DNA of 64,000 nt from Bacteroidota bacterium. Its GTDB lineage: Bacteria; Bacteroidota; Bacteroidia; Chitinophagales; Chitinophagaceae. The notes under the pieces were generated by a model, which saw nothing but the letters and a program-made list of their open reading frames with translations, was not told the origin of the DNA and ran no database searches. The stretch lies in NCBI GenBank assembly GCA_947452905.1, contig CANGEP010000008.1, positions 18,638 through 82,637 of the forward strand. Direction: 5' to 3'. The first letter of the stretch is position 1. Every line of letters begins with the position of its first letter. Shown in pieces: positions 44,785 through 64,000 of this stretch. The translations under genes and the position numbers were made by a program.

Positions 44785-44812
44785 TAAAGTTAAATTCAAA
44801 TAGAAAAAGATT

Positions 44813-46213: not shown

Positions 46214-46233
46214 TATCCAACTGTTACTTTTAC

Positions 46234-46267
46234 ATAAAGGCTGCCCTAAGGCAGCCTTTATTTTTTT
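46234..46267 (+). terminator. Intrinsic terminator of susC2-susD2
   Basis: ATAAAGGCTGCC-ctaa-GGCAGCCTTTAT followed by a U-run. Confidence 0.9.
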
Positions 46268-46328
46268 AACGATTATTTATTTTATAAAATCGATTAAAGC
46301 ATTTAGTTTTAGGTTCTAAAAAAATGGT

Positions 46329-46991
46329 ATGAAAAAAGTTTTTATTGCTCTATTACTTACACTTGCTTTACAAAATGCACAGGCTCAAATATTACAATTA
46401 CAAGATCCTGTATCAAGTAAAAACTTTAATTCAGATAAGTATGCTGGCATAAGAGGTACCCCTTTTTTACAAGACAAATGGAATCGTGGAATAGTCATTA
46501 CTAATAATGGCGTGTACAACGACTTGGAATTAAAAATAGACCTATTTGATAGTAAAGTATATTTTAATAAAAACGAGGATCCTTTTGAGTTATTAGATCC
46601 CATTGTTGGATTAAAATTATATCCCAAATGGCCCGATACCAGTGCCGCAATTTCTTTTATGAGAGGAATTAATCAAAACGGAATTAAGCCCGAACAATAT
46701 GTACAAATATTAGTAGGCTCAGGAGCTATTCAGTTTTATCGTTCCGATATTAAACAATTATCTGAGATGAGTGAAATTAATGCAGGTATGGTAAAAACAT
46801 TTGCCAATACCAGCAGATATTATATTAAAAAAGGTGACCAATATAAATTAATAAAACTGGCAAAGGAAGAGGTTGTTCCTTTTTTACAAGACAAAGAAGA
46901 AGCCGTTAACGGAATTATTGCCGATCAAAAATTAAACTTAAAAAAAGAGGGTGATATTGTAAAATTATTACAAGCTTACAATCGTCTTTAA
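46329..46991 (+). CDS. Exported hypothetical protein
   Basis: Signal peptide; GTPFLQDKW...LKIDLFD pattern resembles Bacteroidota hypothetical proteins (from recall). Overlaps the convergent GNAT gene by 24 bp. Confidence 0.75.
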   Translation: MKKVFIALLLTLALQNAQAQILQLQDPVSSKNFNSDKYAGIRGTPFLQDKWNRGIVITNNGVYNDLELKIDLFDSKVYFNKNEDPFELLDPIVGLKLYPKWPDTSAAISFMRGINQNGIKPEQYVQILVGSGAIQFYRSDIKQLSEMSEINAGMVKTFANTSRYYIKKGDQYKLIKLAKEEVVPFLQDKEEAVNGIIADQKLNLKKEGDIVKLLQAYNRL

Positions 46992-48223: not shown

Positions 48224-48325
48224 AATGATTGATTGTTCTCTATTAACAAGTTTACACACAAAAGGTTGATTATTTAAATAATAAGTTCTTGAATTTTAAC
48301 TAAATTGAAGGGTAAATCATTCAAT

Positions 48326-49726
48326 ATGAAAAATAACGATGCTAACTCTCGAAGAAAATTTCTTCAACAAATTGGTGCCACAAGTTTATTAGCCGCTGCT
48401 ACGCCTTTTGCTTCTATGGCGAGCAATGCCAAAGCCGAAGAACGTTTATTAATTTATGACAGAAAGATTACCGCTAATGATAGAATTAGAATTGGCGTAA
48501 TTGGTTATGGCGTGCAAGGGCATTTTGATTTAAGAACCGCATTAAAAGTACCCGGAGTTGAACTTGCTGGTATATGTGATTTATACCAAGGTAGATTAGT
48601 GAATGCGAAAGAGCAATTTGGAGAACAATTATTTACCACAAATAATTACAAAGATCTTTTAAATAGAAGCGATATTGATGCTGTACTAATTTGCACTACC
48701 GATGTTTGGCACGCGCGCATTACCTTGGATGCTTTAGCTAAAGGCAAACATGTGTATTGCGAAAAACCCATGGTATTTAAAATTAATGAAGGCTACCCGG
48801 TAATAGAAGCTGCTAAAAAATCGGGCAAAGTAGTACAGGTGGGTAGTCAAAGAGTAAGTAGTATTGGCTATTTAAAAGCAAAAGAACTATTAGCCGCTGG
48901 TGAAATTGGAGAATTAAATATGGTGAACGCCGTATATGACAGACAAAGTTCTATAGGTGCTTGGGAATATACCATTCCTAAAGATGCAAATGCCCTTACA
49001 ACCAACTGGGATAAATTTATCGAAGCCACCGAAAAAATGGAATTTGATGCAAAAAAGTTTTTCTGGTGGAGAGCTTTTAAAGAAGTGGGCACTGGTGTGG
49101 CGGGTGATTTATTTATTCATTTATTAAGTGGCACCCATTTAATCACAGGCTCTAAAGGCCCTGAAAGTATTTTTAGCACTGGTCAATTTAGTTATTGGAA
49201 AGATGGTAGAAACTTACCTGATGTAATGTCGGGTGTTTTGCAATATCCAAAAACAAAAGAGCATGCTGCCTTCTTAATGACCCTTCAAGTTAATTTTATT
49301 AGCGGAACAGGTGGTCAAGAAATTATTCGATTGATAGGTTCTGAAGGGGTGATCGAAGTAAACGGTAATAACATTTCAGTAAAACACAGCTTAATGCCTG
49401 AGGCACCTGGTTTCGGAGGTTATGATTCCTTATTTACTTTCTCTAAAAGTATGCAAGAAGAGATGCAAAAAGACTATAACGCTAAATGGACGGCAGAGCA
49501 ACAAAAAAGAAAAACCAAAAGCGATATCATTTTTAAGGCACCAGCAGGATACGACGACCATTTAGATCACTTCACTAATTTCTTTGACTCCATTAGAACA
49601 GGTAAGCCAGTAGTTGAAGATGCTGAATTTGGTTTTAGAGCAGCAGCTCCTGCCTTATCTTGTAACGAAAGTTATTTGACAAAGAAAATTATTGGATGGG
49701 ATCCGGTAAATATGAAACTTAAGTAA
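48326..49726 (+). CDS. Gfo/Idh/MocA family oxidoreductase with a Tat signal peptide
   Basis: SRRKFLQ twin-arginine motif, GVIGYGVQG, HVYCEKP, QVGSQR. The start is likely 48326. Confidence 0.88.
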   Translation: MKNNDANSRRKFLQQIGATSLLAAATPFASMASNAKAEERLLIYDRKITANDRIRIGVIGYGVQGHFDLRTALKVPGVELAGICDLYQGRLVNAKEQFGEQLFTTNNYKDLLNRSDIDAVLICTTDVWHARITLDALAKGKHVYCEKPMVFKINEGYPVIEAAKKSGKVVQVGSQRVSSIGYLKAKELLAAGEIGELNMVNAVYDRQSSIGAWEYTIPKDANALTTNWDKFIEATEKMEFDAKKFFWWRAFKEVGTGVAGDLFIHLLSGTHLITGSKGPESIFSTGQFSYWKDGRNLPDVMSGVLQYPKTKEHAAFLMTLQVNFISGTGGQEIIRLIGSEGVIEVNGNNISVKHSLMPEAPGFGGYDSLFTFSKSMQEEMQKDYNAKWTAEQQKRKTKSDIIFKAPAGYDDHLDHFTNFFDSIRTGKPVVEDAEFGFRAAAPALSCNESYLTKKIIGWDPVNMKLK

Positions 49727-49727
49727 G

Positions 49728-50870
49728 TTAATTGGCAACACATCTAAATCCTGTATGCTCCAATCCAGTGTCAGGGGATGTTTTCATTCTTGCAGTAACT
49801 CTATAGCCTTTACAATAAGAGGCGTTGCATAAAAAAGAACCCCCTCTCACCACTCGCTTGGGTGCATTAGGCTCTTGTGGGTCATAACTATCTTTTGGTC
49901 CTATCGGATTTACAATTACTTGAGCATTGTTATTTTGTAATTGACTTTTGTAGGTATCTTCTCTATACCAATCGGAGCACCACTCCCATACATTTCCAGC
50001 CATATCATATAAACCTACTGCATTAGGTGCAAAAGATTTTACGGGCGATAATCCTTCAAAATGATCCCAATCTGTATTAGTGCTAGGAAAACTACCTTGC
50101 CAAGTATTTGCTTTTGGTTTACCTTTTTCAATATCCTCCTCACCCCAAGTATATTTTGAACTAAGTCCACCCCTTGCGGCGGCCTCCCATTGTGCTTCGG
50201 TTGGTAATTTTTTTCCTGCCCATTTGCAATAGGCTTGTGCATCATCCCAGGAAATATGCACCACCGGATAATTATCTTTGCCTTTAATTGAAGATTCAGG
50301 CCCTTTTGGATGTTTCCAATTAGCTCCTTTTTTCCATGACCACCAAGCGCCTGGATTATCTAAACTTGTTCCAATAGGTTGTGGCACAAATACAAGTGAG
50401 GCCGCTACCAAGACATCTTCCGAAGGCTTTGGCGTACCTGGAGGTAATTGCTGTTTTATTAATTCCCAATCTGGTTTTTTTTCTGCTGTTGTTACATAGC
50501 CAGTAGCCTCAATAAATTTTTTAAACTGAGCATTGGTTACTTCTGTTACATCTATCCAAAAATTCGCTAGTTGCACTTTGTGTTGAGGATATTCATCTAC
50601 TCTTCCTTCTTTATCATTAGCCCCCATTAAAAATGTTTGTGCCTTTATAAGCACCATACCCTCATGGGAAACATTTGTGTCCATTTCTGTTACACTGGAA
50701 TCAGCATTATTTAGAGCACCCCCATTTCCAAATCGAGAAGGTAAATTTGTTGTACAATGCAAAAGACTGTCTTTTTTGGCGGCTTCTGCTTTTTCGGTGG
50801 CTGATTGACAAGCAGAAAATATTATTAAAAATACTACTAAATAGAATGATAAGAAAAATTTTAGATTCAT
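49728..50870 (-). CDS. Formylglycine-generating enzyme (FGE/SUMF1 family), predicted lipoprotein
   Basis: EVTNAQF, LPTEAQWEAAARGG, GLYDMAGNVWEWCSD, RGGSFLCNASYCKGYRVTAR (Cys pair as in human FGE); lipobox FSAC21. Confidence 0.88.
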   Translation of the reverse strand: MNLKFFLSFYLVVFLIIFSACQSATEKAEAAKKDSLLHCTTNLPSRFGNGGALNNADSSVTEMDTNVSHEGMVLIKAQTFLMGANDKEGRVDEYPQHKVQLANFWIDVTEVTNAQFKKFIEATGYVTTAEKKPDWELIKQQLPPGTPKPSEDVLVAASLVFVPQPIGTSLDNPGAWWSWKKGANWKHPKGPESSIKGKDNYPVVHISWDDAQAYCKWAGKKLPTEAQWEAAARGGLSSKYTWGEEDIEKGKPKANTWQGSFPSTNTDWDHFEGLSPVKSFAPNAVGLYDMAGNVWEWCSDWYREDTYKSQLQNNNAQVIVNPIGPKDSYDPQEPNAPKRVVRGGSFLCNASYCKGYRVTARMKTSPDTGLEHTGFRCVAN

Positions 50871-50952
50871 AAATGTATAGGAATTTACAGGAACAAGATA
50901 GGATTCAAATTAGTATAATTTTTTGAATTATATAGCACTATAAAATGTAAGT

Positions 50953-51783
50953 CTATCTAATACTTGCTATCGCTACTGGATCCATGTCAGTGAACTCTTT
51001 ATTTTCACCTGCCATGCCCCATATAAAACCATAATTAGAAGTACCTACACCAAAATGCATACTCCAAGGAGCAGATAAAACAGCTTCGTTATTGGCTACA
51101 ACTATATGTCTTGTATCTTGCGGCTCTCCCATAAAATGCATCACACGATGTGCCTCATTTATATCAAAATAAAAATAAGCTTCCATTCTTCTTGTGTGTG
51201 TATGTGGTGGGACTGAATTCCAAACACAGCCTTCTTCTAATGTGGTTAACCCCATTACTAATTGACAGCTTTGAATGCCATCATTATGGATGTATTTGTA
51301 AATAGTTCTTTTATTGGAAGTGCTAAAATCGCCTAAATGAACTGGAGAAGCCTCCGCTTTAGTTATTAATTTATTAGGATAACCAGCATGTGCAGGTGTT
51401 GATAATAAATAAAATAAAGCTGGTGTAGTATTTAAATCACTAACAAAAGAAACTTCTTTGGTGCCTTTTCCTAAGTAAGTGCATTCTAATTTATCTAATT
51501 CATAAATTATCCCATCTGCTATCACTTTCCCTTTACCGCCAACATTAATAATCCCCATTTCTCTACGCTCTAGAAAATAATTAGCTTTTAATTCGGTTTC
51601 GTTGGGAAGTGCAATAGGATTTGAAGTTGGCACCACGCCACCTACTATGACTCTATCATAATGAGAATAGGTAAGTTTAATTTTCCCTGCCACCATTAAA
51701 TCTTGGATTAAAAAATTATCTCTAGTTTCTTTAGTTGACATTGCAGCAGTCTCTTTTGGACTGTTTTGAAATCTTACTTGCAT
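50953..51783 (-). CDS. kduI: 5-dehydro-4-deoxy-D-glucuronate (DKI) isomerase
   Basis: YSHYDRVIVGG, LERREMGIIN, SCQLVMG, WNSVPPHTHTRRMEAYFYF, FIWGMAGEN. Confidence 0.95.
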   Translation of the reverse strand: MQVRFQNSPKETAAMSTKETRDNFLIQDLMVAGKIKLTYSHYDRVIVGGVVPTSNPIALPNETELKANYFLERREMGIINVGGKGKVIADGIIYELDKLECTYLGKGTKEVSFVSDLNTTPALFYLLSTPAHAGYPNKLITKAEASPVHLGDFSTSNKRTIYKYIHNDGIQSCQLVMGLTTLEEGCVWNSVPPHTHTRRMEAYFYFDINEAHRVMHFMGEPQDTRHIVVANNEAVLSAPWSMHFGVGTSNYGFIWGMAGENKEFTDMDPVAIASIR

Positions 51784-51804
51784 TCTATTTTTGGTTTAAC
51801 TTAA

Positions 51805-52998
51805 TTATAAAATTCTTAAAAGTAATTTTTTTGATTCTGGAGATTGATTGTAGATAAATGGTAAGCATTCATTACAAGCATTGTGTTTACTCGCACTTAA
51901 TAAAAGTGGATAAGCATTTTCTGCATCAAAATGTTTTAAAATAGGCCAAGTCCATTGTTTTTTCCCTAATAAATAAGGAGTTAAAAAATCATAAGCATTT
52001 TTTAAAGACATGCCATTACTGAGCTTTGTATTTCTAAAATCAACATTAATATTATGGGCCGATTGTGCAATTGACTCAAAGGCATTTAAAATAAATACGG
52101 AATAATGTAATGAATTAGTTCGAGCTAATTCCTGGGGGAAAGCGCCTTTAGTATCCATCTCTTCTTTTAGTCTTCCTAAAGCTCGATTGATAATTTTTTT
52201 AGACTCTTCAAGGCTATCTAAGTAATTAGTGATCGCTAAAGATTGAGCATCATACCAAATACCATGATTATTTGGTGCATTTTTCTCATCTACTCCATTT
52301 TTGCTATTATTCATCCAATGATAATAGGCACGAAACCAAGTTTTTAAAGCATCGTTGTCTTTTTGAGTCCAACTTTTAGAAGCATTTAAAATATTAACTC
52401 CATCTAACAAATAGATAAAATGTCTCGTATCAATTAAACCCTCGCCCCTTCCCTCAAAAATTCCTTTAACCGCTTGGCCATAATTTACATTAGGATTCAT
52501 TTTAGTATTACTATCTAAAAACCAAACTCTAATTAATTCACTAGCTTTTTTGGCATACACTTCATTGTCTGAAAAATAAAACCCTAAAGATAATTCGTAT
52601 ACTTTTTCACAAACCCTAGGCATATTTTCTTTGTCAGGATAGTTATTTACTTCAGGATTAACATCGCCATCTTTTCTTATATATGGCAGTCCCCCTTTTT
52701 TGGTAGGATCTGGCCACCAATAAGGTGCAAGACTCATATAATCATGCTTGTTGCCACTTGGCGGAAAATCTGTTTTATCCATCACAGAATAAGGGCCAAA
52801 AGATAAATTTTTATTACAGAGGCTAATTAAATTATTATAAGCAGGCATTACATCGGCAGCCTTTTCTTTTACTTTAACTTTACTCACTAGTAAAGATTTA
52901 AAATCCATAGTAACAATATCGGCCCTAGATAATTTTCCTTGAGGAAAAGCAACTACGACAAACAAGGAGAATCCTATAGAAAATATATATTTTTTCAT
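51805..52998 (-). CDS. Polysaccharide lyase, alginate_lyase Pfam fold, PL38-like
   Basis: SGNKHDYMSLAPYWWPDP..GGLPYIRKDG, MNPNVNYGQ, GLIDT, NNHG, QELARTNSLHYS; signal peptide. Motifs recalled from PL38 enzymes. Confidence 0.8.
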   Translation of the reverse strand: MKKYIFSIGFSLFVVVAFPQGKLSRADIVTMDFKSLLVSKVKVKEKAADVMPAYNNLISLCNKNLSFGPYSVMDKTDFPPSGNKHDYMSLAPYWWPDPTKKGGLPYIRKDGDVNPEVNNYPDKENMPRVCEKVYELSLGFYFSDNEVYAKKASELIRVWFLDSNTKMNPNVNYGQAVKGIFEGRGEGLIDTRHFIYLLDGVNILNASKSWTQKDNDALKTWFRAYYHWMNNSKNGVDEKNAPNNHGIWYDAQSLAITNYLDSLEESKKIINRALGRLKEEMDTKGAFPQELARTNSLHYSVFILNAFESIAQSAHNINVDFRNTKLSNGMSLKNAYDFLTPYLLGKKQWTWPILKHFDAENAYPLLLSASKHNACNECLPFIYNQSPESKKLLLRIL

Positions 52999-52999
52999 T

Positions 53000-54304
53000 T
53001 TAATTTTTATTTTGTTTCTTTTTTACCTTTGTAGCGTGTCTACCACTTCCATCACCATGATCTATATAACCCGAGGCTGGATCTAACTGATCTAATACTT
53101 TTTGAAGATTTTCTTTTATACTTTTTGTATGCTCGGTTTCAGTGGTTAATTTTTCTTCGAAAGGTGCATTGTGCATGTCGAAAAGTTCGCCAGCTCGATT
53201 TAATTTCCAATTGGCTTCTCTAACGTACCAATCGTTTCCTAGTTCGGTAAAAATCCAATTTCTTGAATTAGCCTTTCCGGTTTTAATTTGATTTGCAAAA
53301 CTTGTACCATCTATTTTTTTATCTACAGGCAAAGTTGCCCCTGCAATTTCTGCAAAAGTGGGTACGAAATCGGAAGCATCTACTAACTGATTTGTCACAG
53401 TTTGTTTTTTAATAACTCCAGGCCAATTTATAATTAAAGGAACTAAACTTCCCCCTTCTTGCATAGTGCCTTTTTTACCAATAATTTTTTTGCCGTTAAC
53501 AGTGCCTATAGCTGCCGCTTGACCTGCAGTACCATTATCTCCAAAAAATACGATTAAAGTGTTATCTCTTAACTTAAGGCTATCTAATGTATGTATCAAT
53601 TTCCCAACCAATTTATCCATATAGTTTATGTTATCGGTATATAAGTCTTTAAAATCAGTAGTGCCTGGATTAGTATCGGGCGTAGGCTTAATTTCACCAT
53701 GCACTTGTACTAATGAATAATATAAGTAAAAAGGATCTTTGGTGTGATTGGATAAAAACTCTACCATATGATTATGCATTAAATCGGGCATATATTCATT
53801 GTCTTTTAAAACTAAATCCTTGCCATTTAAAATATACTTTTCTTTCTTAACATCTGAATTCAAATAAACACCACTTCCAAAAAAACGCATATAATCATCA
53901 AAACCAAATTCTGCAGGACCTAATGGTAATTGACCCCACTTGCCTATCATTGAAGTAGTATAACCAGCAGTCTTTAAAATTTTAGACATCATTGTTTCGT
54001 CAGATGGTTTAAACTCGCCAGTTTGATCTTGATTAACAGCACCTGTTCTAAAAGCATATCTACCTGTTAATATCATAGCTCTTGATGGTCCGCATAATGG
54101 AGCTGTGTATGCATTTGTATATCTTATGCCATTTTTAGCAAGCTTATCTATTTCGGGAGTTTTATATAAGTCGGCTCCGTAGCAACTAACCCCATCAATA
54201 CCTAAATCATCTGCTAATACAAAAATAATATTGGGTTTTTTATTTTGTGCAGAAACACTAAAAGTTAAAAGTGTTAAGCTAAAAAGAAATAAAGGGACTT
54301 TCAT
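53000..54304 (-). CDS. S1 formylglycine-dependent sulfatase (Cys-type), exported
   Basis: KPNIIFVLADDLG, LCGPSRAMILTG, GDNG; atypical GKWGQL instead of GKWH. Confidence 0.88.
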   Translation of the reverse strand: MKVPLFLFSLTLLTFSVSAQNKKPNIIFVLADDLGIDGVSCYGADLYKTPEIDKLAKNGIRYTNAYTAPLCGPSRAMILTGRYAFRTGAVNQDQTGEFKPSDETMMSKILKTAGYTTSMIGKWGQLPLGPAEFGFDDYMRFFGSGVYLNSDVKKEKYILNGKDLVLKDNEYMPDLMHNHMVEFLSNHTKDPFYLYYSLVQVHGEIKPTPDTNPGTTDFKDLYTDNINYMDKLVGKLIHTLDSLKLRDNTLIVFFGDNGTAGQAAAIGTVNGKKIIGKKGTMQEGGSLVPLIINWPGVIKKQTVTNQLVDASDFVPTFAEIAGATLPVDKKIDGTSFANQIKTGKANSRNWIFTELGNDWYVREANWKLNRAGELFDMHNAPFEEKLTTETEHTKSIKENLQKVLDQLDPASGYIDHGDGSGRHATKVKKKQNKN

Positions 54305-54334
54305 AGATTATATTAATAGGTTTAAAATATATTT

Positions 54335-56062
54335 TTATTTTTTTGCTTTTTTATCCCAAGGCCAAGGCAAAGCTTTAGTTCGTATTGCTTCCTGCTCCCA
54401 TAGTAAAGCTAATTCTTTCACTTTAGAAGTATATTGACCAGCTAGATCTTTGGTTTCACTTGGATCTTTATCTAAATTATATAACTCCCAGGCATTTTGA
54501 TCCTTATCGGTAAAAACTTTATTTTTTTCAGTTTTGGAAACTAATTTCCATGGTCCCGCTTTTATAGCGCGATTGCCTTCATGTTCCCAAAAAATAAAAT
54601 CACGCTTTATTGGTTTATTATGAATGGCGCCCACTAAACTTTTACCTTCCATGGGTTGAATAGAATGACCATTGTAATTTGTAGGGTATTTTATTCCAGC
54701 AATATCAACGCAGGTAGCCATGATATCAATTAAATGAGCATCTTCATTTAGAATAGCTCCTTTTTGTTTAATAGCTTTTGGCCAATAAACAATTAAAGGT
54801 GAGGCTATCCCTCCTTGGTGGGTCCAATGCTTATACATTTTAAAAGGAGTATTACTTACATTAGCCCACTCAATACCATATGTTAACCAAGTATTAGCCT
54901 TCCCAGGCATCACGCCCATGCCACTTCTTATAAAATTACCCTCTCTTGTATAATTGGGTTTTTTACCAACAAAAATAGAATCCTTTGCAAAAGGATGAAT
55001 TTTTTGCTGATCGGATGTCATTGCAATTTCGGGTTGATCTGAATCTAAAGGTTCAGCACAACCTCCATTATCATGCATGTAAAAAATAACGGTATTGTCA
55101 AGTATTCCCTTATTTTCTAAAGTCGTGATAATTTTACCTATTCCCTGATCCATGATGTCAATCATGGCAGCATACACTTGCATTTTTCGTATTTGCCAAT
55201 CTTTCATTGGAGCATTTTCCCAAGCTGGAATACTCACTCCTCTTTCGGTTAAGGTAGCTTCTTTACTTATGATACCCAATTTTTGCAATTTATTAAACCT
55301 TGCTACTCTAATCGCATCCCATCCTTTATCATATACACCCTTATATTTTTGTATTTCTTTTTCTGGTGCATGTAAAGGCCAATGTGCAGCCGTATAAGCA
55401 ATATAAAAGAAGAAAGGATTAGCAGTTTTATGTTCGTTAATAAATTTAACTGCTGTATCTGTAATGGCATTAGTATAATAAAAATTATCTCCAGGAGTGA
55501 TGTATGTATTGTTGCTTACTAAAGTACCCGGGTCATAATAACTTCCCGATCCGTTTAAGGTTCCGAAATATCTTTGAAACCCTCTTTGCACCGGCCAATT
55601 ACTAATATCTTTTTTATCCAGAATATCTTTAGCAATATGCCATTTACCAGTCATATAGGTTGCATAGCCAGATGATTTAAATACTTCTGCCATCGTAACA
55701 GCATTCTTACTTAAATCATCCACATAACCCTCTTCGTTATAATTTTCGGTAGATAAATGACCCATCCCAGCTTGATGAGGATAGAGCCCTGTTAACAAGG
55801 AAGCCCTAGAAGGACTACATCTAGCTGTATTATAAAAATGGCTAAATCTTACCCCTTTGTTCGCTAACTTATCAATATTGGGGGTGTTTATTTCGGAACC
55901 ATAGCAACCTATATCTGAGAATCCCATATCATCGGTTAATATAACAATGATATTAGGTTTTTTACTTTTAGCATTTTTAGATGTCACTTGGGCGTTTAAA
56001 ACAAAAACAGAAGTAAATGATAATGCTGTAAATAAAGTAAAATATTTAAAACATTTATTCAT
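54335..56062 (-). CDS. Arylsulfatase (S1, Cys-type), exported
   Basis: KPNIIVILTDDMG, RCSPSRASLLTG, GKWH, AAHWPLHAP, HDNGG, HLIDIMAT. Confidence 0.92.
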   Translation of the reverse strand: MNKCFKYFTLFTALSFTSVFVLNAQVTSKNAKSKKPNIIVILTDDMGFSDIGCYGSEINTPNIDKLANKGVRFSHFYNTARCSPSRASLLTGLYPHQAGMGHLSTENYNEEGYVDDLSKNAVTMAEVFKSSGYATYMTGKWHIAKDILDKKDISNWPVQRGFQRYFGTLNGSGSYYDPGTLVSNNTYITPGDNFYYTNAITDTAVKFINEHKTANPFFFYIAYTAAHWPLHAPEKEIQKYKGVYDKGWDAIRVARFNKLQKLGIISKEATLTERGVSIPAWENAPMKDWQIRKMQVYAAMIDIMDQGIGKIITTLENKGILDNTVIFYMHDNGGCAEPLDSDQPEIAMTSDQQKIHPFAKDSIFVGKKPNYTREGNFIRSGMGVMPGKANTWLTYGIEWANVSNTPFKMYKHWTHQGGIASPLIVYWPKAIKQKGAILNEDAHLIDIMATCVDIAGIKYPTNYNGHSIQPMEGKSLVGAIHNKPIKRDFIFWEHEGNRAIKAGPWKLVSKTEKNKVFTDKDQNAWELYNLDKDPSETKDLAGQYTSKVKELALLWEQEAIRTKALPWPWDKKAKK

Positions 56063-56065
56063 GAC

Positions 56066-57676
56066 TTATTTAGTTTTTACTTGAGATGCAAAATAAGCTA
56101 ACATTTGTGCCTTTAATTTTTTCGTAACCGCCTCATATTTTAGTTCCTTCGCAACATTTACTTTTTCTAGTGGATCCGCTGTGTAATCATATAATTCATC
56201 CCCTATTACAGATTCTTTTTTAAAGGGTTGTGTAGATCTAAAACCATTTTTCATCCAAATGGTATATCTGTATTGACTATTTCGAATAGAGTATCCCATT
56301 ACATTTGCAGGACCATATCCTAAACGATCATTCTCCTCGTCCACACCACTTCTTGGATATTGGCTTATTGAATACTCTTTGACCTTAACCAATGGTTTTT
56401 TCATGATAGGTTGTAAACTTTTACCTTGTAACTGAGTGGGTATAGCAATTCCAGCTAAATCACAAAGAGTTGGAAAAATATCTAAATGCTCCGAAAATGA
56501 TTTTGTTTTATTAGAAACATAACCTGGTGCACTAATAATTAAAGGCGCATGAGTTGCTTGTTCAAAATTACTATGCTTACACCACAAATTATGGTCTCCC
56601 AAATGCCAACCATGATCGCCCCATAAAACTATAATTGTGTTTTTAGTTAATCCTAATGAATCTAGTGTATTTAAAAGTTTACCTACCAATGCATCGGTAT
56701 AAGATATAGCAGCATAATAGCCATGTAATAATTCCTTCTGTTTATCTACTGATAATGTTAAACCAAGTTCTTTTTGAGGAGTAGTTGCTATAATAGAAGG
56801 AATATCGGTATAAGCTCTTAATTCACCTGCATTATGATAAGCAACATCGATTGGATTTTTATTAATTTCCTGAAAAGGCGCTAAAACAATATCTTCTCTT
56901 TTATATAAATCCCAATATTTTTTAGGTGCCACAAAGGGTAAGTGTGGTTTGGCAATCCCCACTGCAAAAAAGAAAGGTTCGTTTTTACGACTCAATTGAA
57001 CTAAAATATCTTTTGCTTGTAAAATATTAGCACCATCATTGTAGGCATTATCTGGTACATCAATAGATTCTGTTGAAGGGCGAACTTTAGCAGTTGCTTC
57101 ATTGTTTGCTTCTGCTTTTGTCATCCCCTTTGCGAGTGCTTCCTTAATTACTTTTTCTGCCGCTAATTTTGTTTCTTTTAGTTGATACCTTCCTTCTGCT
57201 GGCTCCCCTAATTCAGGAACATAATATTTTTTATCTGTTTTATAATAGGGAACACTCCAAGAAACTTTATCTATATTTTCATCCACATTTCTAACATCAA
57301 ATACTTTACCAATACCTTGCGTAGTATATCCTTGTGTAATTAAATACTGAGGCATTGTAACTATATCCGGACTTACATCACGAATTTGTGTTTTTAAATC
57401 CCAAATTTTGGTCATGTCTGGTCGCATACCAGTTAATAAACTTGCGCGTGTTGGTCCACAAACCGCTTGCTGACAATAATTATTTAAAAAGGTGGTACCC
57501 ATTTTAGCCAATCTATCAATATTGGGTGTTTTTATAAAAGTATTTCCATAAGCCCCAAGTATGGGTTTTAGATCATCTACTGCTATAAATAATATATTTG
57601 GCTTTGATTTTGTTTGGGCAACTGAATGGCTTTGGATTAACCCAATGAATAAACAAAATAAAATTATCTTTTTCAT
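56066..57676 (-). CDS. Iduronate-2-sulfatase-like sulfatase (S1_7-like), GKVFD variant
   Basis: NILFIAVDDLKP, VCGPTRASLLTG, KPHLPF, WGDHGWHLG, WCKHSNFE. Confidence 0.88.
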   Translation of the reverse strand: MKKIILFCLFIGLIQSHSVAQTKSKPNILFIAVDDLKPILGAYGNTFIKTPNIDRLAKMGTTFLNNYCQQAVCGPTRASLLTGMRPDMTKIWDLKTQIRDVSPDIVTMPQYLITQGYTTQGIGKVFDVRNVDENIDKVSWSVPYYKTDKKYYVPELGEPAEGRYQLKETKLAAEKVIKEALAKGMTKAEANNEATAKVRPSTESIDVPDNAYNDGANILQAKDILVQLSRKNEPFFFAVGIAKPHLPFVAPKKYWDLYKREDIVLAPFQEINKNPIDVAYHNAGELRAYTDIPSIIATTPQKELGLTLSVDKQKELLHGYYAAISYTDALVGKLLNTLDSLGLTKNTIIVLWGDHGWHLGDHNLWCKHSNFEQATHAPLIISAPGYVSNKTKSFSEHLDIFPTLCDLAGIAIPTQLQGKSLQPIMKKPLVKVKEYSISQYPRSGVDEENDRLGYGPANVMGYSIRNSQYRYTIWMKNGFRSTQPFKKESVIGDELYDYTADPLEKVNVAKELKYEAVTKKLKAQMLAYFASQVKTK

Positions 57677-57717
57677 TTATAACGTTTTATAGATTTTAAT
57701 ACTTGTACTAGAGCGTA

Positions 57718-59304
57718 TTATCTAGTTTCTTGAGATTTGAAAAAATTAATCATCTTAGCATACATATCTTTTGCAGCTTCTTTATAATTTGCTGAATTAT
57801 AAATATTAACTTTCTCTAAAGGATCTGCAGAATAATCATACATTTCTGTGGCATAAATCTTTTTAGACTCAAAAGGTTGACTAGTAGTAAAGTCATTCAT
57901 CCAAATAGTAAAACGATATTTGCCAGTTCTTAAACTATACCCCATAATTTTATTTGACTCATACCCTGCTTTTTTAGCTTCTTCCTTATTTAACTTTCTT
58001 GGATACTGACTCACCGAGAATTCTTTTACTGAACTTCTATTATTTTGCATTATTGGTTTTAAACTTTTCCCTTGTAAATGCTTTGGTATACTTAATCCAG
58101 CTAAATCGCATATAGTAGGAAATATGTCAAGATGTTCTGACAAGGAAGTAGATTTACCTGGCTTCATTCCAGGTGCAGCTACAATTAATGGGGCGCGAGT
58201 TGCATTTTCCAAATTAGTATGCTTCTCCCATAAATCATGATCCCCTAAATGCCAACCATGGTCACCCCATAAAACAATGATGGTATTATTTAAAGTGCCT
58301 AAAGAATCTAAAGTATTTAATAATATCCCCACTTGCGCATCCATATAAGAAACGGCCGCAAAATAACCATGTATTAATTCCTTTTGTTTTTCTTCCTTCA
58401 AATAAACATGATTCCCTGGTTGGTTATAAGTGGCAAATGCAGGGATGTCTAAATAATTCCTTAACTCACCCGACTTATGATAAGCAACCTCAGGAGCATC
58501 TTTTGCATGTTCTGTAAAAGTTGCTAAAGGCATATCTGCCCTATTATATAAATCCCAGTATTTTTTAGGTGCTACAAAAGGTAAATGCGGTTTATGAAAA
58601 CCTACAGCCATAAAATAAGGACTACTTTTCTTAGTCAACTCAATAATTTTATTTTTTGCTAGTAAAGCAATCACTCCATCGTCATAAGCATTATCTGGCA
58701 CATCAATACACTCCGACGAAGGGCCTTTAATGGTGGTAGGCTCTTCGTCATCATTATCTCTTTTTTCTCTTTCTTTTTTAACTAAAAAAAGAGCTTTGTT
58801 TTCTGGTTTTTGATATTGAGAGTTTGCTGGCTTACCTAAGTTATTTGCATAGTCAGACTCTTTAGGGTCTAAGTAAGGCAGGTTCCAACTTGCAGGATCA
58901 ATTCTGTTGATAGCGCTACTAGGATGATAAATCTTGCCTGTTCCAACAGTTTTATATCCTTGTGTAATTAGATATTGAGGTAGTGTTACAATATCAGGAT
59001 TCATATCACGCATTTGCGTTTTTAGATCCCAGACTTTTGTATAATCAGGACGCATCCCTGTCATTAAACTTGCACGTGTTGGTCCACATACTGCTTGTTG
59101 ACAATAATTATTTAAAAACACGGTTGACATTTTTGCAAGTCTATCAATATTTGGAGTTTTGATTAACTTATTTCCATAAGCTCCAAGTTCGGGCTTAAGA
59201 TCATCTACCGCAATAAATAAAATATTGGGTTTGCTTTTTTGAGCTATACTCTTGCTGTTTAAAGAAAATAAAAGCAAAGTTGCAAATACTAATTTATTTT
59301 TCAT
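57718..59304 (-). CDS. Iduronate-2-sulfatase-like sulfatase (S1_7-like), canonical GKIYH
   Basis: NILFIAVDDLKP, VCGPTRASLMTG, GKIYH, GFHKPHLPF, WGDHGWHLG; tandem paralogue of 56066..57676. Confidence 0.9.
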   Translation of the reverse strand: MKNKLVFATLLLFSLNSKSIAQKSKPNILFIAVDDLKPELGAYGNKLIKTPNIDRLAKMSTVFLNNYCQQAVCGPTRASLMTGMRPDYTKVWDLKTQMRDMNPDIVTLPQYLITQGYKTVGTGKIYHPSSAINRIDPASWNLPYLDPKESDYANNLGKPANSQYQKPENKALFLVKKEREKRDNDDEEPTTIKGPSSECIDVPDNAYDDGVIALLAKNKIIELTKKSSPYFMAVGFHKPHLPFVAPKKYWDLYNRADMPLATFTEHAKDAPEVAYHKSGELRNYLDIPAFATYNQPGNHVYLKEEKQKELIHGYFAAVSYMDAQVGILLNTLDSLGTLNNTIIVLWGDHGWHLGDHDLWEKHTNLENATRAPLIVAAPGMKPGKSTSLSEHLDIFPTICDLAGLSIPKHLQGKSLKPIMQNNRSSVKEFSVSQYPRKLNKEEAKKAGYESNKIMGYSLRTGKYRFTIWMNDFTTSQPFESKKIYATEMYDYSADPLEKVNIYNSANYKEAAKDMYAKMINFFKSQETR

Positions 59305-59350
59305 ACTTATCTATATTGTAATTGTGCGATTGAATAATTTATGGTAAGCT

Positions 59351-59392
59351 AAAAACGAATACTACTGCTTTTTTAGACAGTAGTATTCGTTT
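59351..59392 (-). terminator. Strong hairpin/terminator between susD3 and the sulfatase genes
   Basis: Perfect 15-bp stem AAACGAATACTACTG (59353-67)/CAGTAGTATTCGTTT (59378-92); U-run on the minus strand. Confidence 0.75.
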
Positions 59393-59413
59393 AAAGTTTA
59401 ACCTAGATATTCA

Positions 59414-60955
59414 TTAATACCCCGGATTTTGTGGAATGGTAATTTTAGTGTTATTATCAATTTCACGCTGTGGTATTGGCAATAATAATTTATTAGAAGT
59501 TACATATGATTGAATCGTAGCCAAGGATGGAGGTGTGGGATATTTGCTATAATGTGTAGCCCACATTGCAGCATAATTTCCCTTAATGGTAGTGATGGCA
59601 TCTTGACTAGGCATGGTAGTATTATACCTTAAAATATCAAACCATCTCATATTTTCGAATGTAAATTCTAACCTTCTTTCATTGGCTAATTCTTTTTCGA
59701 ATATAGCAGTAGTAGTTACTGTTGCAGCGGTTAAAGCTGGCAAAGCTGCACGGGCTCTTGTTTGATTAATTAGAGCTAAACTAGCAGGAGTGTTTCCTTG
59801 TGCTTCCGCTAACATCAATAAAACATCCGCATATCTAATAACAATCCAATCATTTTCCGCATCTCCTAAAAGAGATACTTGTGAAATCATTTTTTTAGGA
59901 TATAAATTATTTAAAGCTGTACCGTAAGTAGCTATACTTACTGCCTTTCTAGTATCTAAAGCATTATAAGCATTGCTCAATTCCAAACATGGTGCATTTT
60001 GTCCCGATCCATCGCCATTAATTACCGCTACTCCACTTAATTCTGGTGCAAATAAATTAGGAAATGGTGAACCCTGTCCAATACCCCCTGCCTTGTATCT
60101 CACTGCAAACATTATCTCCTTGTTCATTTCATTAGTGATAGAGAAAACGTCTGCATAACTAGCAACTAATCCATAACCACTATTAGCAATTATGTCGGTT
60201 AATAATGGAATAGCATCTGATTTACGGTTTAATGTTAAATAAACTTTTGCTAATAAAGCTTTAGCTGCCCAAATATTTACTTTACCTAAATTAGCAGTAG
60301 GAATAGAAGCGTATTTTAAATTTGTACCATTATCAATTGAGTATTTAAGATCAGCTATGATGAATTTGTACATATCATCTGTAGTAGATCTGTTAATTTT
60401 GGTAGCTTCAAAAGGATCCACTGGTTCATCAATTAACATAACTCCTCCATATAATCTCACAAGATTAAAATAGTGATAGGCTCTAATAAATGAGGCTTCG
60501 GCACTTGCCACCTTTTTTTGCGCATCTGTAATTTGCACCTTAGTTGCACCAGCAGCTACTACACCCGAAGCTGGATCGTAATTCACATTCAAACTATTTA
60601 ATATGTTATTTACATTTCTAATGTTAAAATAATTAGCAATCCAATAGTTATAAATGGCAGCATGCGAGGTACTTGGGATAAACAAATCTAAGTCACTCAA
60701 GTCTCTGTTAGGCACCGACTTACTTGCCGAGCTGTACATAATGGTATTATCACTTCTCAACTCTGTTAATTTCCATTCTTCTAACAAAGGAGCTCTTAGT
60801 GCATTATAACAACCATTTAGGGCAATTTGAATATCATTTGCATTTTGATAAAAGTTTTCAGTTGTTATATTGGATTGTGGATACAAATCAATATTTTTCT
60901 CACAAGAAGCAAGAAATATAGAGGAAAGTATAAATAGGTTTAAAATCTTTTTCAT
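59414..60955 (-). CDS. susD: RagB/SusD family outer-membrane lipoprotein of the sulfatase PUL
   Basis: Lipobox FLASC, AEASFIRAYHYFNLVRLYGGV, IRYADVLLMLAEA, ERRLEFTFE, QNPGY. Confidence 0.92.
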   Translation of the reverse strand: MKKILNLFILSSIFLASCEKNIDLYPQSNITTENFYQNANDIQIALNGCYNALRAPLLEEWKLTELRSDNTIMYSSASKSVPNRDLSDLDLFIPSTSHAAIYNYWIANYFNIRNVNNILNSLNVNYDPASGVVAAGATKVQITDAQKKVASAEASFIRAYHYFNLVRLYGGVMLIDEPVDPFEATKINRSTTDDMYKFIIADLKYSIDNGTNLKYASIPTANLGKVNIWAAKALLAKVYLTLNRKSDAIPLLTDIIANSGYGLVASYADVFSITNEMNKEIMFAVRYKAGGIGQGSPFPNLFAPELSGVAVINGDGSGQNAPCLELSNAYNALDTRKAVSIATYGTALNNLYPKKMISQVSLLGDAENDWIVIRYADVLLMLAEAQGNTPASLALINQTRARAALPALTAATVTTTAIFEKELANERRLEFTFENMRWFDILRYNTTMPSQDAITTIKGNYAAMWATHYSKYPTPPSLATIQSYVTSNKLLLPIPQREIDNNTKITIPQNPGY

Positions 60956-60989
60956 AATTAAAATATTTTATATTTTTTCTTTTAGAAAA

Positions 60990-63900
60990 TTAAAAATTTA
61001 TATCAATACCAGCGGTAATTGTTTGTGGTATTGGGAAAGAACCTCTTTGATATCCATCAATCAATACAGATGAATAAGGTCCATTATTAAATCTACCTTC
61101 TGGATTTAATCCTCTATATCCATCTGCAGTATGGAAATATAAATTCTGTGCAGAAAAATATAATCTTACCGAGCTTACATTAAATCTTTTAATGGCAGCT
61201 GTTGGAATGGTATATCCTAAATTAACTTCTCTTAAAGCAAAATATGACGCATCTTCAATAACATAATCAGTTAACATCCAGTTAAAGCCATTGGTAGAAT
61301 AAGGTGTTTTCCCGTCTCCAGGATATTGTGCACTAATCCATCTATTTTGATTATATGTACGAATTGTTCTTCTAGATTCATTATAATTAGGGTCACCGTT
61401 AATTAACTTGCCACCTTGTACCCCTTGCACTAAGAAACTGAAATCAAAACCTTTAAACTTAAAATTATTAGTAATACCCCAGTTAAAATCAGGATAAGGA
61501 TTTCCTAAATCTGTTCTATCATTATTGTCAATCTTTCCGTCCTTATTCATATCTACAACCTTCAATCCTCCTGGAACAAACATAGCTGTTAAAGTAGACG
61601 TTAAACCAGATTGATTAATTTGATCTTGTGATAACCAAACACCATCAGTTTTAAATCCATAATATTTAACCAATGGGTCGCCAACTTTATTTCTATATAC
61701 TTCGGTACGCTCTCCTTGATTTAACAAAAATGCTTCTGTACCAAGTTCAAGAATTTTATTTCGATTTTGTGAAATGTTAGCAGAAGTTGTCCAAGTGAAA
61801 TCTTTTGTTTGAATATTTCTTGTATTAACTTCTAATTCAAAACCTTTATTTTCTAATTTACCTAAGTTATTCCAAAATTGTGGGACACCTGTAAATGCCA
61901 TAGCAGATTGTTGTAACAATAATCTATCTGTTACAGACTTATAAATATCTAAAGTGAAGCTCACTCTATTTGAAAATAAAGCTAAATCAACACCAAAGTT
62001 ATCTTGCTTAGTGCTTTCCCAAGTGATATTTGGATTTGATAAATAAGAGCTAGAGCTCACAAGACCTGGTGTAGTTACCCCTGTACCTGAACCATAGGTA
62101 TAGTTAGCACCATATAATAAATCTAAAAAGGCAAAGTCTACAATTCTATTATTTCCAGAAACACCATAGCTTTTACGTAATTTTAAATTACTTAACCAAG
62201 CTATATTACTAAATAACTTTTCTTTACTTAGAATCCAACCTGCAGAAATGGAAGGGAATTGACCCCATTTGTTTCCTTGAGCAAAATAAGAACTACCATC
62301 TGTTCTATAACTCGCCGAAATTAAATATTTATCGGCATAAGCATAATTAATACGTCCCAAATAGGAAATAAGTCCTATTTGATTATTGGTTCCAGTAGTT
62401 CCAGACTTGTCAATTTGAGCAGCACTATTTAAAGTTCTTATATCATCACTTGGGAAATCAATTCCTGTTGTTTGTTGGTTTTGTACTTTTGTAGTTTGGG
62501 AAGTAAAACCTGCAAGAATATTTAAGTTGCTTTTGTTTGTTTGTTTAGTATAGTTTAAAGTGTTTTCTGATAATAAATCAACATATTTATTATTAATAAA
62601 AACTCCTTTATTGATAGAACCTTCACTATTGTACTCTCTTTCATAAAAACTCAATCCATTCGTATAATACATTAAGTTAGATCCTATTGTTTTAAAAATT
62701 AAGCCTTTCGCAATTTCAACACTTAATTCGGCAGAAGATTGTAAACGATATTCGTTACTTGTAATATCAGATCGCATAACATCTGAGCGAGGATTCTGTT
62801 GAGCAGAGCCACTTGGGTTAGCCGTAGTTGGCGATGTCCATGTGGTGCCATCTGGCATTAAACCTGTATATTTTAAATTTGAAAAGTGACGTGGATGGGC
62901 AAAGTCACCAGGCAATATGCTAGCATATTGAGAATTGGTATTTACTAATGCAGCTGTTAAATCATTATGATATACTGGAAGCCATGTTGGAGCTCTCCAA
63001 AAGTTTGTAAAGTTTTGAGAAGGTGAAATTTTCTTTGTATAGGAAGGATTAAGATTTACTGATAGTTTTACCTTACTACTTAATTCAACGTCAACTCTAG
63101 TTCTGATATTAAATTTCTCATAATTGCTTTTGTATTGCATACCCTCGTCATTCTGATATCCTCCAGAAAGAAAATATCTCAAATCTTTAGAACCACCAGA
63201 AGCGCTTAATTGAATGTTTTTAAATCCTCCGGGTCTTAAGCTTTCGGATTGCCAATCCGTTGATTTATTACCTCTAAGTGCAGTTTCAATAATATACGAA
63301 GCTTTATCCGCATCTGCTACTATATTGGTTGATTGAACAACAGTTGGATCATTAGCTCTAAATAAAACTTCATTAAATAACATTTTAACATATTCCTGTG
63401 TGGTCATAATATCATATCGCTTGTAATCCTTTTTTTGACCTGCTGAATATTTAAAGTTGTATTTAGGTTTGCTTACAGATCCTTTTTTTGTGGTAACGAT
63501 AATAACACCACTTGCTCCTCTCGATCCGTAAATAGCTGCAGATGCAGCATCTTTTAAAACTTCAATTGATTCAATATCCGCAGGATTCAAAAACGATAAG
63601 GCATCTGGAACAGGTAACCCATCTACAACAATCAATGGACTGGCCCCTGCATATAATGAACTAATACCTCTTATACTAATTTTAGGTGCTGCGCCAGCTT
63701 CAGAGGATGTATTTTGAATGGTCAAACCAGCAATTTTACCTTGTAATGCTTGATCAATTCTAGCAACAGGCGCTTCGTCTAAATTTTCATTTTTAAACTT
63801 TGATATAGCTCCAGTTAAACTAGATTTTTTTTGCGTACCATAACCAATAACTACAACTTCACTTTGAACCGAATTATCTTGAACTAAGGAAATAACATAA

Positions 63901-64000
63901 TTAGTTTCTTGTCCTAAAGTAATTTTTTGTTCTAAATAACCAACATAAGAAAAAGTTACGTTTTTTACAGAAGAAGTAATAGGTAATGTAAAGGTACCGT
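60990..64000 (-). CDS. susC: SusC/RagA family TonB-dependent transporter of the sulfatase PUL (5' end outside the window)
   Basis: The frame stays open past the ORF-track start at 63725 to the edge: GTFTLPIT...FSYVGY...EVVVIGYGTQKK...IDQALQGKIAGL; plug motif LNPADIESIEVLKDAASAAIYGSRGASGVI; C-terminal GIDINF. Confidence 0.93.
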   Translation of the reverse strand, partial: GTFTLPITSSVKNVTFSYVGYLEQKITLGQETNYVISLVQDNSVQSEVVVIGYGTQKKSSLTGAISKFKNENLDEAPVARIDQALQGKIAGLTIQNTSSEAGAAPKISIRGISSLYAGASPLIVVDGLPVPDALSFLNPADIESIEVLKDAASAAIYGSRGASGVIIVTTKKGSVSKPKYNFKYSAGQKKDYKRYDIMTTQEYVKMLFNEVLFRANDPTVVQSTNIVADADKASYIIETALRGNKSTDWQSESLRPGGFKNIQLSASGGSKDLRYFLSGGYQNDEGMQYKSNYEKFNIRTRVDVELSSKVKLSVNLNPSYTKKISPSQNFTNFWRAPTWLPVYHNDLTAALVNTNSQYASILPGDFAHPRHFSNLKYTGLMPDGTTWTSPTTANPSGSAQQNPRSDVMRSDITSNEYRLQSSAELSVEIAKGLIFKTIGSNLMYYTNGLSFYEREYNSEGSINKGVFINNKYVDLLSENTLNYTKQTNKSNLNILAGFTSQTTKVQNQQTTGIDFPSDDIRTLNSAAQIDKSGTTGTNNQIGLISYLGRINYAYADKYLISASYRTDGSSYFAQGNKWGQFPSISAGWILSKEKLFSNIAWLSNLKLRKSYGVSGNNRIVDFAFLDLLYGANYTYGSGTGVTTPGLVSSSSYLSNPNITWESTKQDNFGVDLALFSNRVSFTLDIYKSVTDRLLLQQSAMAFTGVPQFWNNLGKLENKGFELEVNTRNIQTKDFTWTTSANISQNRNKILELGTEAFLLNQGERTEVYRNKVGDPLVKYYGFKTDGVWLSQDQINQSGLTSTLTAMFVPGGLKVVDMNKDGKIDNNDRTDLGNPYPDFNWGITNNFKFKGFDFSFLVQGVQGGKLINGDPNYNESRRTIRTYNQNRWISAQYPGDGKTPYSTNGFNWMLTDYVIEDASYFALREVNLGYTIPTAAIKRFNVSSVRLYFSAQNLYFHTADGYRGLNPEGRFNNGPYSSVLIDGYQRGSFPIPQTITAGIDINF

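Follow-up and report, generated by a model that had tools for sequence, protein, structure and literature searches.

Polyuronate lyases of family PL38 are known from several described systems. In gut Bacteroides (B. ovatus CP926/B. xylanisolvens), the alginate cluster combines PL6_1, PL17_2 and PL38 lyases with a transporter of the major facilitator superfamily (MFS) and a reductase for 4-deoxy-L-erythro-5-hexoseulose uronate (DEH), which is a short-chain dehydrogenase/reductase (SDR), and it does not include KduI (PMC12678894; bioRxiv 10.1101/2024.12.11.627697). The glycosaminoglycan (GAG) polysaccharide utilization locus (PUL) of Roseihalotalea indica contains PL8, PL35, PL38 and CE19 enzymes (PMC13027841). 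Glucuronan lyases occur both in PL38 (CUL-I, TpPL38A) and in PL17 (OPIT5_27565) (PMC13027841; PMC5966431). The ulvan PUL of Formosa agariphila comprises PL28/PL40 lyases, GH105/GH88 and GH78 hydrolases and S1_7/S1_8/S1_25 sulfatases (Reisky et al. 2019, as tabulated in PMC9096561). Here, a further PL38-containing locus is described, which occupies positions 49728 to 64000 of a 64,000-nucleotide (nt) stretch of DNA, in the following called the window, from a Bacteroidota bacterium (assembly GCA_947452905.1, contig CANGEP010000008.1, positions 18,638 to 82,637). The reading towards which we lean, as on balance the probable one, is that this region makes up the larger of the two arms of a divergent PUL under LacI control and, with equal reserve, that this PUL serves the use of a polymer that consists mainly of uronic acid in gluco/ido (or galacto) configuration and is O-sulfated and often O-acetylated.

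The region contains nine co-oriented open reading frames (ORFs) on the minus strand, which were assigned from the ORF listing and Pfam. In transcription order they encode SusC, SusD, four PF00884 sulfatases, a PF05426 lyase, KduI and a formylglycine-generating enzyme (FGE), which bears out the order given in a preliminary description of this DNA:

60990..64000, minus strand: SusC-like TonB-dependent transporter, 3′ part; plug and barrel domains (Pfam), frame open to 63998
59414..60955, minus strand: SusD-like surface glycan-binding lipoprotein; PF07980 and PF14322, lipoprotein signal LASC
57718..59304, minus strand: S1 sulfatase 1, 528 amino acids, S1_7-like; PF00884, best matches 5fql (3.1e-81) and 6hhm (1.1e-76), motif CGPTR, signal peptide
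56066..57676, minus strand: S1 sulfatase 2, 536 amino acids, S1_7-like; 6hhm (6.7e-79) and 5fql (3.7e-76), motif CGPTR
54335..56062, minus strand: S1 sulfatase 3, 575 amino acids, S1_4-like; 7all (2.7e-125) and 1hdh (8.8e-85), motif CSPSR
53000..54304, minus strand: S1 sulfatase 4, 434 amino acids, no clear subfamily; PF00884, best PDB match an S1_19 enzyme (1.9e-48), motif CGPSR
51805..52998, minus strand: PL38-like polyuronate lyase (PL38a), 397 amino acids, secreted; PF05426, 8bdq (1.8e-78)
50953..51783, minus strand: KduI, 5-dehydro-4-deoxy-D-glucuronate isomerase, cytoplasmic; PF04962, NF002091
49728..50870, minus strand: FGE with lipoprotein signal; PF03781 (3.1e-78), matches to FGEs in the PDB, catalytic Cys pair

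The intergenic gaps across these genes measure 34, 109, 41, 3, 30, 1, 21 and 82 nt, and such short gaps (1–109 nt) on a shared strand are consistent with one single tight operon. SusC adjoins SusD on the strand that also carries the sulfatases and the lyase, as in a PUL. Pfam revealed no glycoside hydrolase inside the nine-gene operon and no GH88 in the window, in agreement with the hydrolase absence noted earlier.

The SusC frame runs off the end of the window, as no stop codon occurs up to 63998. Searching with the exact SusD protein led to metagenome contigs and two metagenome-assembled genomes (MAGs), and thereby to contig L001 (overlapping view L094), whose sequence agrees with that of the window at each of the 14,273 nt that the two share. 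On this contig, the full SusC has 1061 amino acids (L001 6781–9966); its start lies 175 nt past the window end and 58 of its codons are outside the window. The genes upstream of susC were inspected as well. A 116-amino-acid KdgF-like cupin (7zyb, 6.5e-34; 5fpx, 1.5e-26; 5fq0, 6.6e-20) heads the operon and is separated by a 273-nt divergent intergenic region from an operon of opposite direction that encodes LacI, a PL6 lyase with two domains, another PL38-like lyase (PL38b; best match 3nfv, 2e-47) and a secreted FmdA/AmdA-like protein (L001/L094). The PL6 lyase matches 8bwk at 5e-127 and AlyGC at 2e-122, but chondroitinase B (1dbg) at only 1.7e-31. The term "self-contained", which had been applied to the PUL in the preliminary description, thus had to be given up. 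The FmdA/AmdA (acetamidase/formamidase) protein (L094 13429–14427), which ends the LacI-PL6-PL38b operon and was found in this species only, could conceivably remove an amide or N-acyl decoration.

Between the cupin and the LacI gene, approximately 250–300 nt past the window (L001 6150–6195), lies a palindromic array, ATACCGGTACCGTTACCGGTAACGTATCGGTAT, with the perfect core GTTACCGGTAAC. In many related loci of other genera, this core motif is located 30–70 nt upstream of the LacI gene with a 12-nt repeat phase, and in the related locus L077 it forms a perfect 24-nt palindrome. As the same motif precedes LacI across genera, the array is probably the LacI operator. It was found by eye and by a pattern search, while a generic inverted-repeat search missed it.

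Still further out, about 13–18 kb past the window (L094 17045–21942), a GH2 enzyme with a malectin domain, a 254-amino-acid secreted cupin and a GH29 alpha-L-fucosidase are encoded. These genes lie about 5 kb past the locus, with an opposite-strand abhydrolase and an M28 peptidase gene in between, and were rejected as members of the locus, as they are not conserved beside it in other genomes.

The configuration of the presumed substrate is indicated by KduI, which passes the NCBIfam equivalog NF002091 with 414.9 bits (cut-off 250; residues 1–276). Beta-elimination at glucuronic (GlcA), iduronic (IdoA) or galacturonic acid (GalA) yields the L-threo unsaturated uronate, which KduI and KduD convert to 2-keto-3-deoxygluconate (KDG), whereas alginate yields the L-erythro isomer DEH, which is converted directly by a reductase. 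This distinction, on which the preliminary description had already relied, holds, and the conserved PL38-(KduD)-KduI adjacency in related loci argues for a uronate of gluco/ido (or galacto) configuration and against alginate.

The earlier description of the lyase as PL38-like proved right, as the best relatives of PL38a are PL38 structures (BoPL38, 8bdq, about 50% identity over residues 59–369, followed by 3nfv with 7.1e-73) and a PDB sequence search gave no chain of a PL5 structure at E ≤ 0.01. An NCBIfam search of PL38a gave no match. In BoPL38, the residues Y91, D108, Q173, N242, H243, R292, H297 and Y298 serve catalysis and the active-site tunnel (bioRxiv 10.1101/2024.12.11.627697). Their counterparts in PL38a (Y93, D110, Q175, N244, H245, R293, H298 and Y299) are all identical and are invariant in the ortholog alignment. 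The ortholog group of PL38a spans 59–83% identity, below which the identity drops to 56% or less, and it includes close orthologs from loci without sulfatases (L008, L010). PL38a may thus act on desulfated chains and not with a sulfate-dependent specificity; the fully conserved tunnel and the orthologs from sulfatase-free loci suggest that desulfation would mostly precede the action of PL38. An exploratory comparison of sulfatase-linked with other PL38s, which is confounded by phylogeny, showed residue differences (e.g., W94, E186) and no clear gain of basic, sulfate-binding residues.

A clustering of 73 PL38 sequences from species-representative loci, with neighbors counted within 2.5 kb, places the lyase of the window in a distinct context. 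KduI and/or sulfatases are neighbors in 30 of the 33 members of subclades 3, 4, 6 and 8, to which the window's lyase belongs, and KduI is present beside all eight members of its own subclade. The large subclade 5, which is typically linked to cupin, PL17 and PL6 genes and also has 33 members, has KduI or sulfatases beside none of them. This shows that the lyase of the window belongs to PL38 lineages whose genes are physically coupled to those of sulfatases and of the L-threo uronate pathway. Of the new lyase specificity that had been predicted from the sulfatase context, one part stands, namely a link between PL38 and sulfatases that recurs across genera and in subclades of its own; the specificity itself appears only partly new, since a GAG-active PL38 was reported in 2026.

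All four sulfatases contain PF00884, an N-terminal signal peptide and a C-x-P-x-R motif (CGPTR, CGPTR, CSPSR and CGPSR), and such Cys-type motifs make all of them clients of an FGE. The protein encoded at the end of the operon is a true FGE, which would activate Cys-type sulfatases: it matches 6s07 (1.8e-73), human SUMF1 (1y1e, 2.7e-69) and 2q17 (1.6e-65) far better than PorK (5e-26) and keeps the catalytic Cys pair C348 and C353 in GGSFLCNASYC. Sulfatases 1 and 2 are paralogs with 58% identity, whose best matches are human iduronate-2-sulfatase (5fql, 6ioz) and the Formosa ulvan sulfatase P18_S1_7 (6hhm) at approximately 1e-76 to 1e-81, and they appear S1_7-like (iduronate-2-sulfatase/ulvan Xyl2S sulfatase type). 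Two of the three characterized S1_7 activities, those of human IDS and of the ulvan endo-Xyl2S sulfatase, remove 2-O-sulfate from a 4-linked uronate or from its decarboxy analog xylose (PMC9096561). Sulfatase 3 is closest to 7ALL, which belongs to the B. thetaiotaomicron sulfatase set containing the S1_4 enzyme BT4683, and its match to 1hdh is one to the P. aeruginosa arylsulfatase. For sulfatase 4, several other subfamilies score almost as high as the S1_19 enzyme, while its partners in related loci are 59–90% identical. NCBIfam named none of the four, giving only sub-threshold generic arylsulfatase or choline-sulfatase matches. The earlier label "iduronate-2-sulfatase-like" for the sulfatases hence fits the two S1_7-like enzymes, but neither the S1_4-like nor the 434-amino-acid one.

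The arrangement is conserved in relatives. The locus L092, whose PL38 is 83% identical, encodes SusC, SusD, the same four sulfatases (86–92% identical), PL38, KduI and FGE, and the locus L093 (PL38 66% identical) encodes the same four sulfatases (83–90%) together with an SASA-type esterase, KduD and FBPase; SusD, the four sulfatases, PL38, KduI and FGE follow in the same order in both. The KduD and SASA esterase genes that flank PL38 in L093 (8055–11966) are absent from the window (51784–51804 and 52999), as is the FBPase gene preceding FGE in L093 from the window's lineage. Throughout L092 and L093, the block of SusD and four sulfatases (window 53000–60955) is 83–93% identical and thus above PL38 (83% and 66%), which suggests partly separate histories of a sulfatase cassette and a lyase module. 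Among other orthologs, two (L007, L012) have an SASA esterase and two sulfatases and two (L008, L010) have no sulfatases, with all four retaining a core of cupin, PL38, KduD and KduI.

In a scan of one genome per species, PL38 homologs were found at 80 loci, almost all of them from freshwater, soil or sludge Bacteroidota. These loci were screened by tblastn and drawn as gene maps. Orthologs of the window's sulfatase types (at least 50% identity, within 10 kb of the PL38 homolog) were found in 26 of these loci, which belong to Chitinophagaceae, Sediminibacterium, Ferruginibacter and Flavobacterium MAGs; this recurrence argues that the link between PL38 and sulfatases is more than chance. Typically, these 26 loci contain LacI, PL6, KduI, KduD, a PL17-like lyase, cupin, PL38, SusC, SusD, PL38b, sulfatases (two S1_7, the 434-amino-acid type and sometimes S1_4) and FGE, with MFS transporters and BD-FAE or SASA esterases as accessory genes. 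KduI is present in 12 of the 26 sulfatase-bearing loci versus 12 of the 54 others (Fisher p = 0.038). The SusD of the window is 60–75% identical to the SusD proteins of other sulfatase-bearing loci and 49–59% identical to those of sulfatase-free loci. Glycoside hydrolases are almost absent from the sulfatase-bearing loci, GH88-family genes being found only beside L043 and L026. In these Ferruginibacter/Sediminibacterium relatives (L043 13114–19778, L026 11213–12382), PL38-KduD-KduI is followed by a KdgK-like kinase, a GH88-family protein, altronate dehydratase and glucuronate isomerase, which hints that some versions of the locus might also process saturated or galacto-configured uronates.

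Sequencing runs that contain the stretch are labeled as freshwater and lake water metagenomes, while no RNA run containing the sequence was found among the sequencing runs searched. As the SecA protein shares 86% identity with MAG proteins labeled Sediminibacterium sp. or Chitinophagia and 76% identity with those of Sediminibacterium soli, S. magnilacihabitans and Hydrobacter, the host is, judged by its proteins, an uncultured freshwater member of the Chitinophagaceae related to Sediminibacterium.

From the observed gene identities, catalytic motifs, layout, conservation and co-occurrence we infer the substrate, the positions of its sulfate groups and the order of the steps as follows. Four exported sulfatases and a dedicated FGE between SusD and the lyase and at the operon end, respectively, argue that the imported oligomers are sulfated and point to uronates or close analogs as the sulfated residues. 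Three lyases, to which a PL17-like enzyme is added as a fourth in relatives, in combination with no unsaturated-uronyl hydrolase point to a mostly uronic backbone and to the design known for homopolyuronates, from which monomers are released by exo-lyases. The polymer backbone is therefore likely to consist mostly or wholly of 4-linked uronic acid, as in a sulfated exopolymer of glucuronan-like or "gluco-alginate" type, and its producers are likely lake phototrophs or bacteria. Bacterial glucuronan is O-acetylated, and the esterases in related loci suggest that the polymer used by these relatives probably is so too. SusD, possibly together with a surface lyase, would capture the polymer and SusC would import oligomers. 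In the periplasm, the four FGE-activated Cys-type sulfatases would then strip off sulfate esters, with the two S1_7-like enzymes probably removing the 2-O-sulfate of uronates and the S1_4-like and the fourth enzyme acting on other positions. PL38a, PL38b and the two-domain PL6 would subsequently degrade the chains by beta-elimination to unsaturated monomers, so that no unsaturated-uronyl hydrolase would be needed. KdgF would linearize the unsaturated uronate and KduI would isomerize the L-threo product, whereupon KduD and KdgK/KdgA, encoded elsewhere, would complete the route to pyruvate and glyceraldehyde-3-phosphate.

Several points weigh against the proposed sulfated polyuronate as the substrate. 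All three lyases are nearest to characterized alginate lyases. Neither orthologs of the KduD-type SDR and the MFS transporter of related loci (looked for in the window and in the 86 kb in view) nor KdgK and KdgA (86 kb in view) were seen, so that the pathway is locally incomplete. A heteropolymer is still conceivable in view of the GH88-family genes beside L043 and L026 and of the GH2/GH29 genes that lie some 5 kb past the locus. The sulfatase subfamilies were assigned by best PDB matches and not by SulfAtlas, and the co-occurrence and subclade counts are phylogenetically non-independent and include many truncated contigs. In addition, we know of no description of a natural sulfated homopolyuronan, and according to Kappelmann et al. 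alginates that carry sulfate are not known from nature (PMC6298971).

The alternative that survives best, which we nonetheless consider unlikely, is that the locus handles the uronate-rich part of a sulfated heteropolysaccharide, for example a cyanobacterial, desmid or diatom exopolysaccharide with GlcA/GalA, fucose and rhamnose, for which the hydrolases (e.g., GH2/GH29) would be encoded elsewhere. Cyanobacterial exopolysaccharides are typically sulfated and uronate-rich, and the GH2, cupin and GH29 alpha-L-fucosidase genes just past the locus would suit such a polymer, as would the GH88-family genes adjoining L043 and L026, the former of which also has UxaA/UxaC for saturated uronates. However, two opposite-strand genes separate GH2/GH29 from the locus, no conserved adjacency is seen elsewhere, and in most of the 26 loci with sulfatases nothing but lyases, sulfatases, esterases and transporters is seen.

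It appears still less likely that the substrate is a GAG, i.e., chondroitin, dermatan or heparan sulfate or a hyaluronan-like polymer of zooplankton, fish mucus or bacterial capsules, with PL38 and PL6 acting as GAG lyases and the S1_7 enzymes as uronate-2-O-sulfatases. KduI and KduD are the standard route for GAG-derived unsaturated uronates, the PL6 family includes chondroitinase B (1dbg, 1.7e-31) and the founder of S1_7 is human iduronate-2-sulfatase. Moreover, hyaluronan and, to a weak extent, chondroitin sulfate are degraded by RiPL38 of the R. indica GAG-PUL, as reported in 2026 (PMC13027841). PL38 is hence not limited to alginate or glucuronan, and the view that characterized PL38 enzymes act only on these two unsulfated polymers, still held in the preliminary description, is outdated. 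Nevertheless, the PL6 of the locus matches exo-alginate lyases with two domains (5e-127) far better than it does chondroitinase B, and the window and L094 contain no domain of the PL8, PL12, PL13, PL15, PL21, PL29, PL33, PL35 or PL37 type. None of the sulfatases best-matches a GAG sulfatase, as 5g2t, 6s20, 6s21, 6j66 and 5g2v rank far below the top; the GAG subfamilies are S1_9, S1_11, S1_15 and S1_27. Genes for hexosamine catabolism are missing from the locus, and no GH88 (PF07470) was found either within the window or over the next 22 kb; the cleavage of unsaturated disaccharides would require such a hydrolase. On these grounds (no GH88, no GAG lyase family, no GAG-type sulfatase subfamily), a GAG-like target, one of those guessed at earlier, is disfavored.

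A plain alginate locus for bacterial or algal alginate, in which the sulfatases and FGE would serve another substrate or be passengers and KduI would be spare or promiscuous, is marginally less probable again. It would fit that the characterized enzymes nearest to PL38a and PL6 are AlyGC and two alginate lyases from B. ovatus, namely BoPL38 and a PL6 with two domains, that KdgF serves alginate catabolism too and that sulfatase-free sister loci have SusC/SusD proteins 50–60% identical to those of the window. The gut Bacteroides alginate cluster, furthermore, has the same lyase families, PL6_1, PL17_2 and PL38 (PMC12678894). Such a locus would, however, require a DEH reductase and would have no need of KduI or sulfatases, and the opposite was found: KduI and four sulfatases are present, whereas the locus contains no DEH-reductase-type SDR, the SDRs of the window lying outside the operon and being at most 31% identical to the locus SDRs of relatives. 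The sulfatase genes moreover lie inside the operon, flanked by those of SusD and the lyase and spaced by 1–41 nt, an arrangement kept at 83–92% identity, with sulfatases recurring in 26 of 80 species, and the PL38 subclade of the window is KduI-adjacent in eight of eight members. Lastly, alginate is not known to be sulfated (PMC6298971), in line with what had been assumed for this locus before. An ulvan-like target, also guessed at earlier, is highly improbable, since the lake habitat speaks strongly against it and the locus (window and extension) lacks PL24/25/28/40, GH78 rhamnosidase, GH105/GH88 and xylosidase, even though ulvan PULs likewise combine S1_7 sulfatases, KduI/KduD and uronate lyases and 6hhm (P18_S1_7) is a top match.

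If the sulfated polyuronate reading is taken further, a natural sulfated homopolyuronan of freshwater (soil, sludge) can be envisaged, made of 4-linked GlcA/IdoA and often O-acetylated, on which the whole Chitinophagaceae/Flavobacterium PUL family feeds via lyases and uronate sulfatases and without any glycoside hydrolase. This is a speculative proposal that we deem rather doubtful; if true, the KduI- and sulfatase-linked PL38 subclades would represent the first lyases specialized for a polymer of this kind. Sulfated polysaccharides are usually viewed as marine, and a conserved lake locus implies that a sulfated uronic-acid polymer, perhaps from cyanobacterial or algal blooms, recurs in lake carbon cycling. 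The locus offers handles for finding this polymer, with SusD for binding screens and the lyases and sulfatases as analytical enzymes, and it might provide new uronate-sulfatase and PL38/PL6 specificities, e.g., for tailoring heparin-like sulfated uronans. If an ordinary GAG or alginate proved to be the substrate, no more than a routine PUL variant would be left of the finding.

The remainder of the 64-kb window consists of housekeeping genes and two other SusC/SusD pairs (41791–46991, plus strand; 31737–36471, minus strand), neither of which adjoins a recognizable CAZyme; the former is followed by a gene for a 220-amino-acid protein and preceded by genes for 426- and 200-amino-acid proteins, all without a Pfam match. 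A 731-amino-acid radical SAM protein is encoded beside a 5′-nucleotidase-like gene (37420–39615, minus strand), unrelated to the locus, and appears by size and context unlike an anaerobic sulfatase-maturating enzyme. Convergent to the operon lies a gene for a Gfo/Idh/MocA oxidoreductase with the twin-arginine signal RRKFLQQIG (48305–49726, plus strand). It was rejected as a member of the locus, being convergent and only 27% identical to the GFO genes that L092 has between KduI and FGE, which are unrelated to it, and its match to the BT_2158 glycoside 3-dehydrogenase family was weak and below the threshold. Between 47000 and 64000, a sigma-70 promoter scan, whose model does not include Bacteroidota promoters, yielded 77 hits versus 76.6 in shuffled sequence, and an intrinsic-terminator scan yielded 14 versus 10.2, both at the level of shuffled sequence and hence uninformative.

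In the literature searched, no description of this PUL type was found. Its parts (SusC/D, PL6, PL38, S1 sulfatases, FGE, KdgF, KduI and LacI) are known; the combination, its spread among freshwater Bacteroidota and the implied substrate are new. The ulvan PUL of F. agariphila feeds KduI/KduD. It shares uronate lyases and S1_7 sulfatases with the locus of the window, and two of the sulfatases have its 6hhm among their best matches, but it employs other lyase families, needs many hydrolases and acts on a marine substrate, and the ulvan-specific families are absent here. With the R. indica GAG-PUL, the locus has in common a PL38 in a SusC/SusD locus for a gluco-configured uronate polymer; that PUL, however, is marine and contains the GAG lyases PL8 and PL35, and sulfatases, KduI and FGE are not among the genes listed in the available part of its report (PMC13027841). 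To our knowledge, the glucuronans known so far carry no sulfate (some carry acetyl groups), and there is no description of a glucuronan PUL that includes sulfatases. The glucuronan lyases, which were compared by their published description, share the PL38 family with PL38a (CUL-I, TpPL38A), and glucuronan as a substrate yields the L-threo product that KduI needs, which fits the PL38-KduD-KduI core of the relatives. The gut Bacteroides alginate cluster resembles the locus in its lyase families, in having lyases without glycoside hydrolases and in the same two-domain type of PL6, and its BoPL38 is about 50% identical to PL38a with all catalytic and tunnel residues kept. Unlike that cluster, which has PL17 and an MFS transporter, neither of them in view here, the locus of a freshwater Chitinophagaceae has four S1 sulfatases and FGE in the operon, a LacI with its own operator and KduI instead of a DEH reductase, so that the implied product is the L-threo and not the L-erythro isomer.

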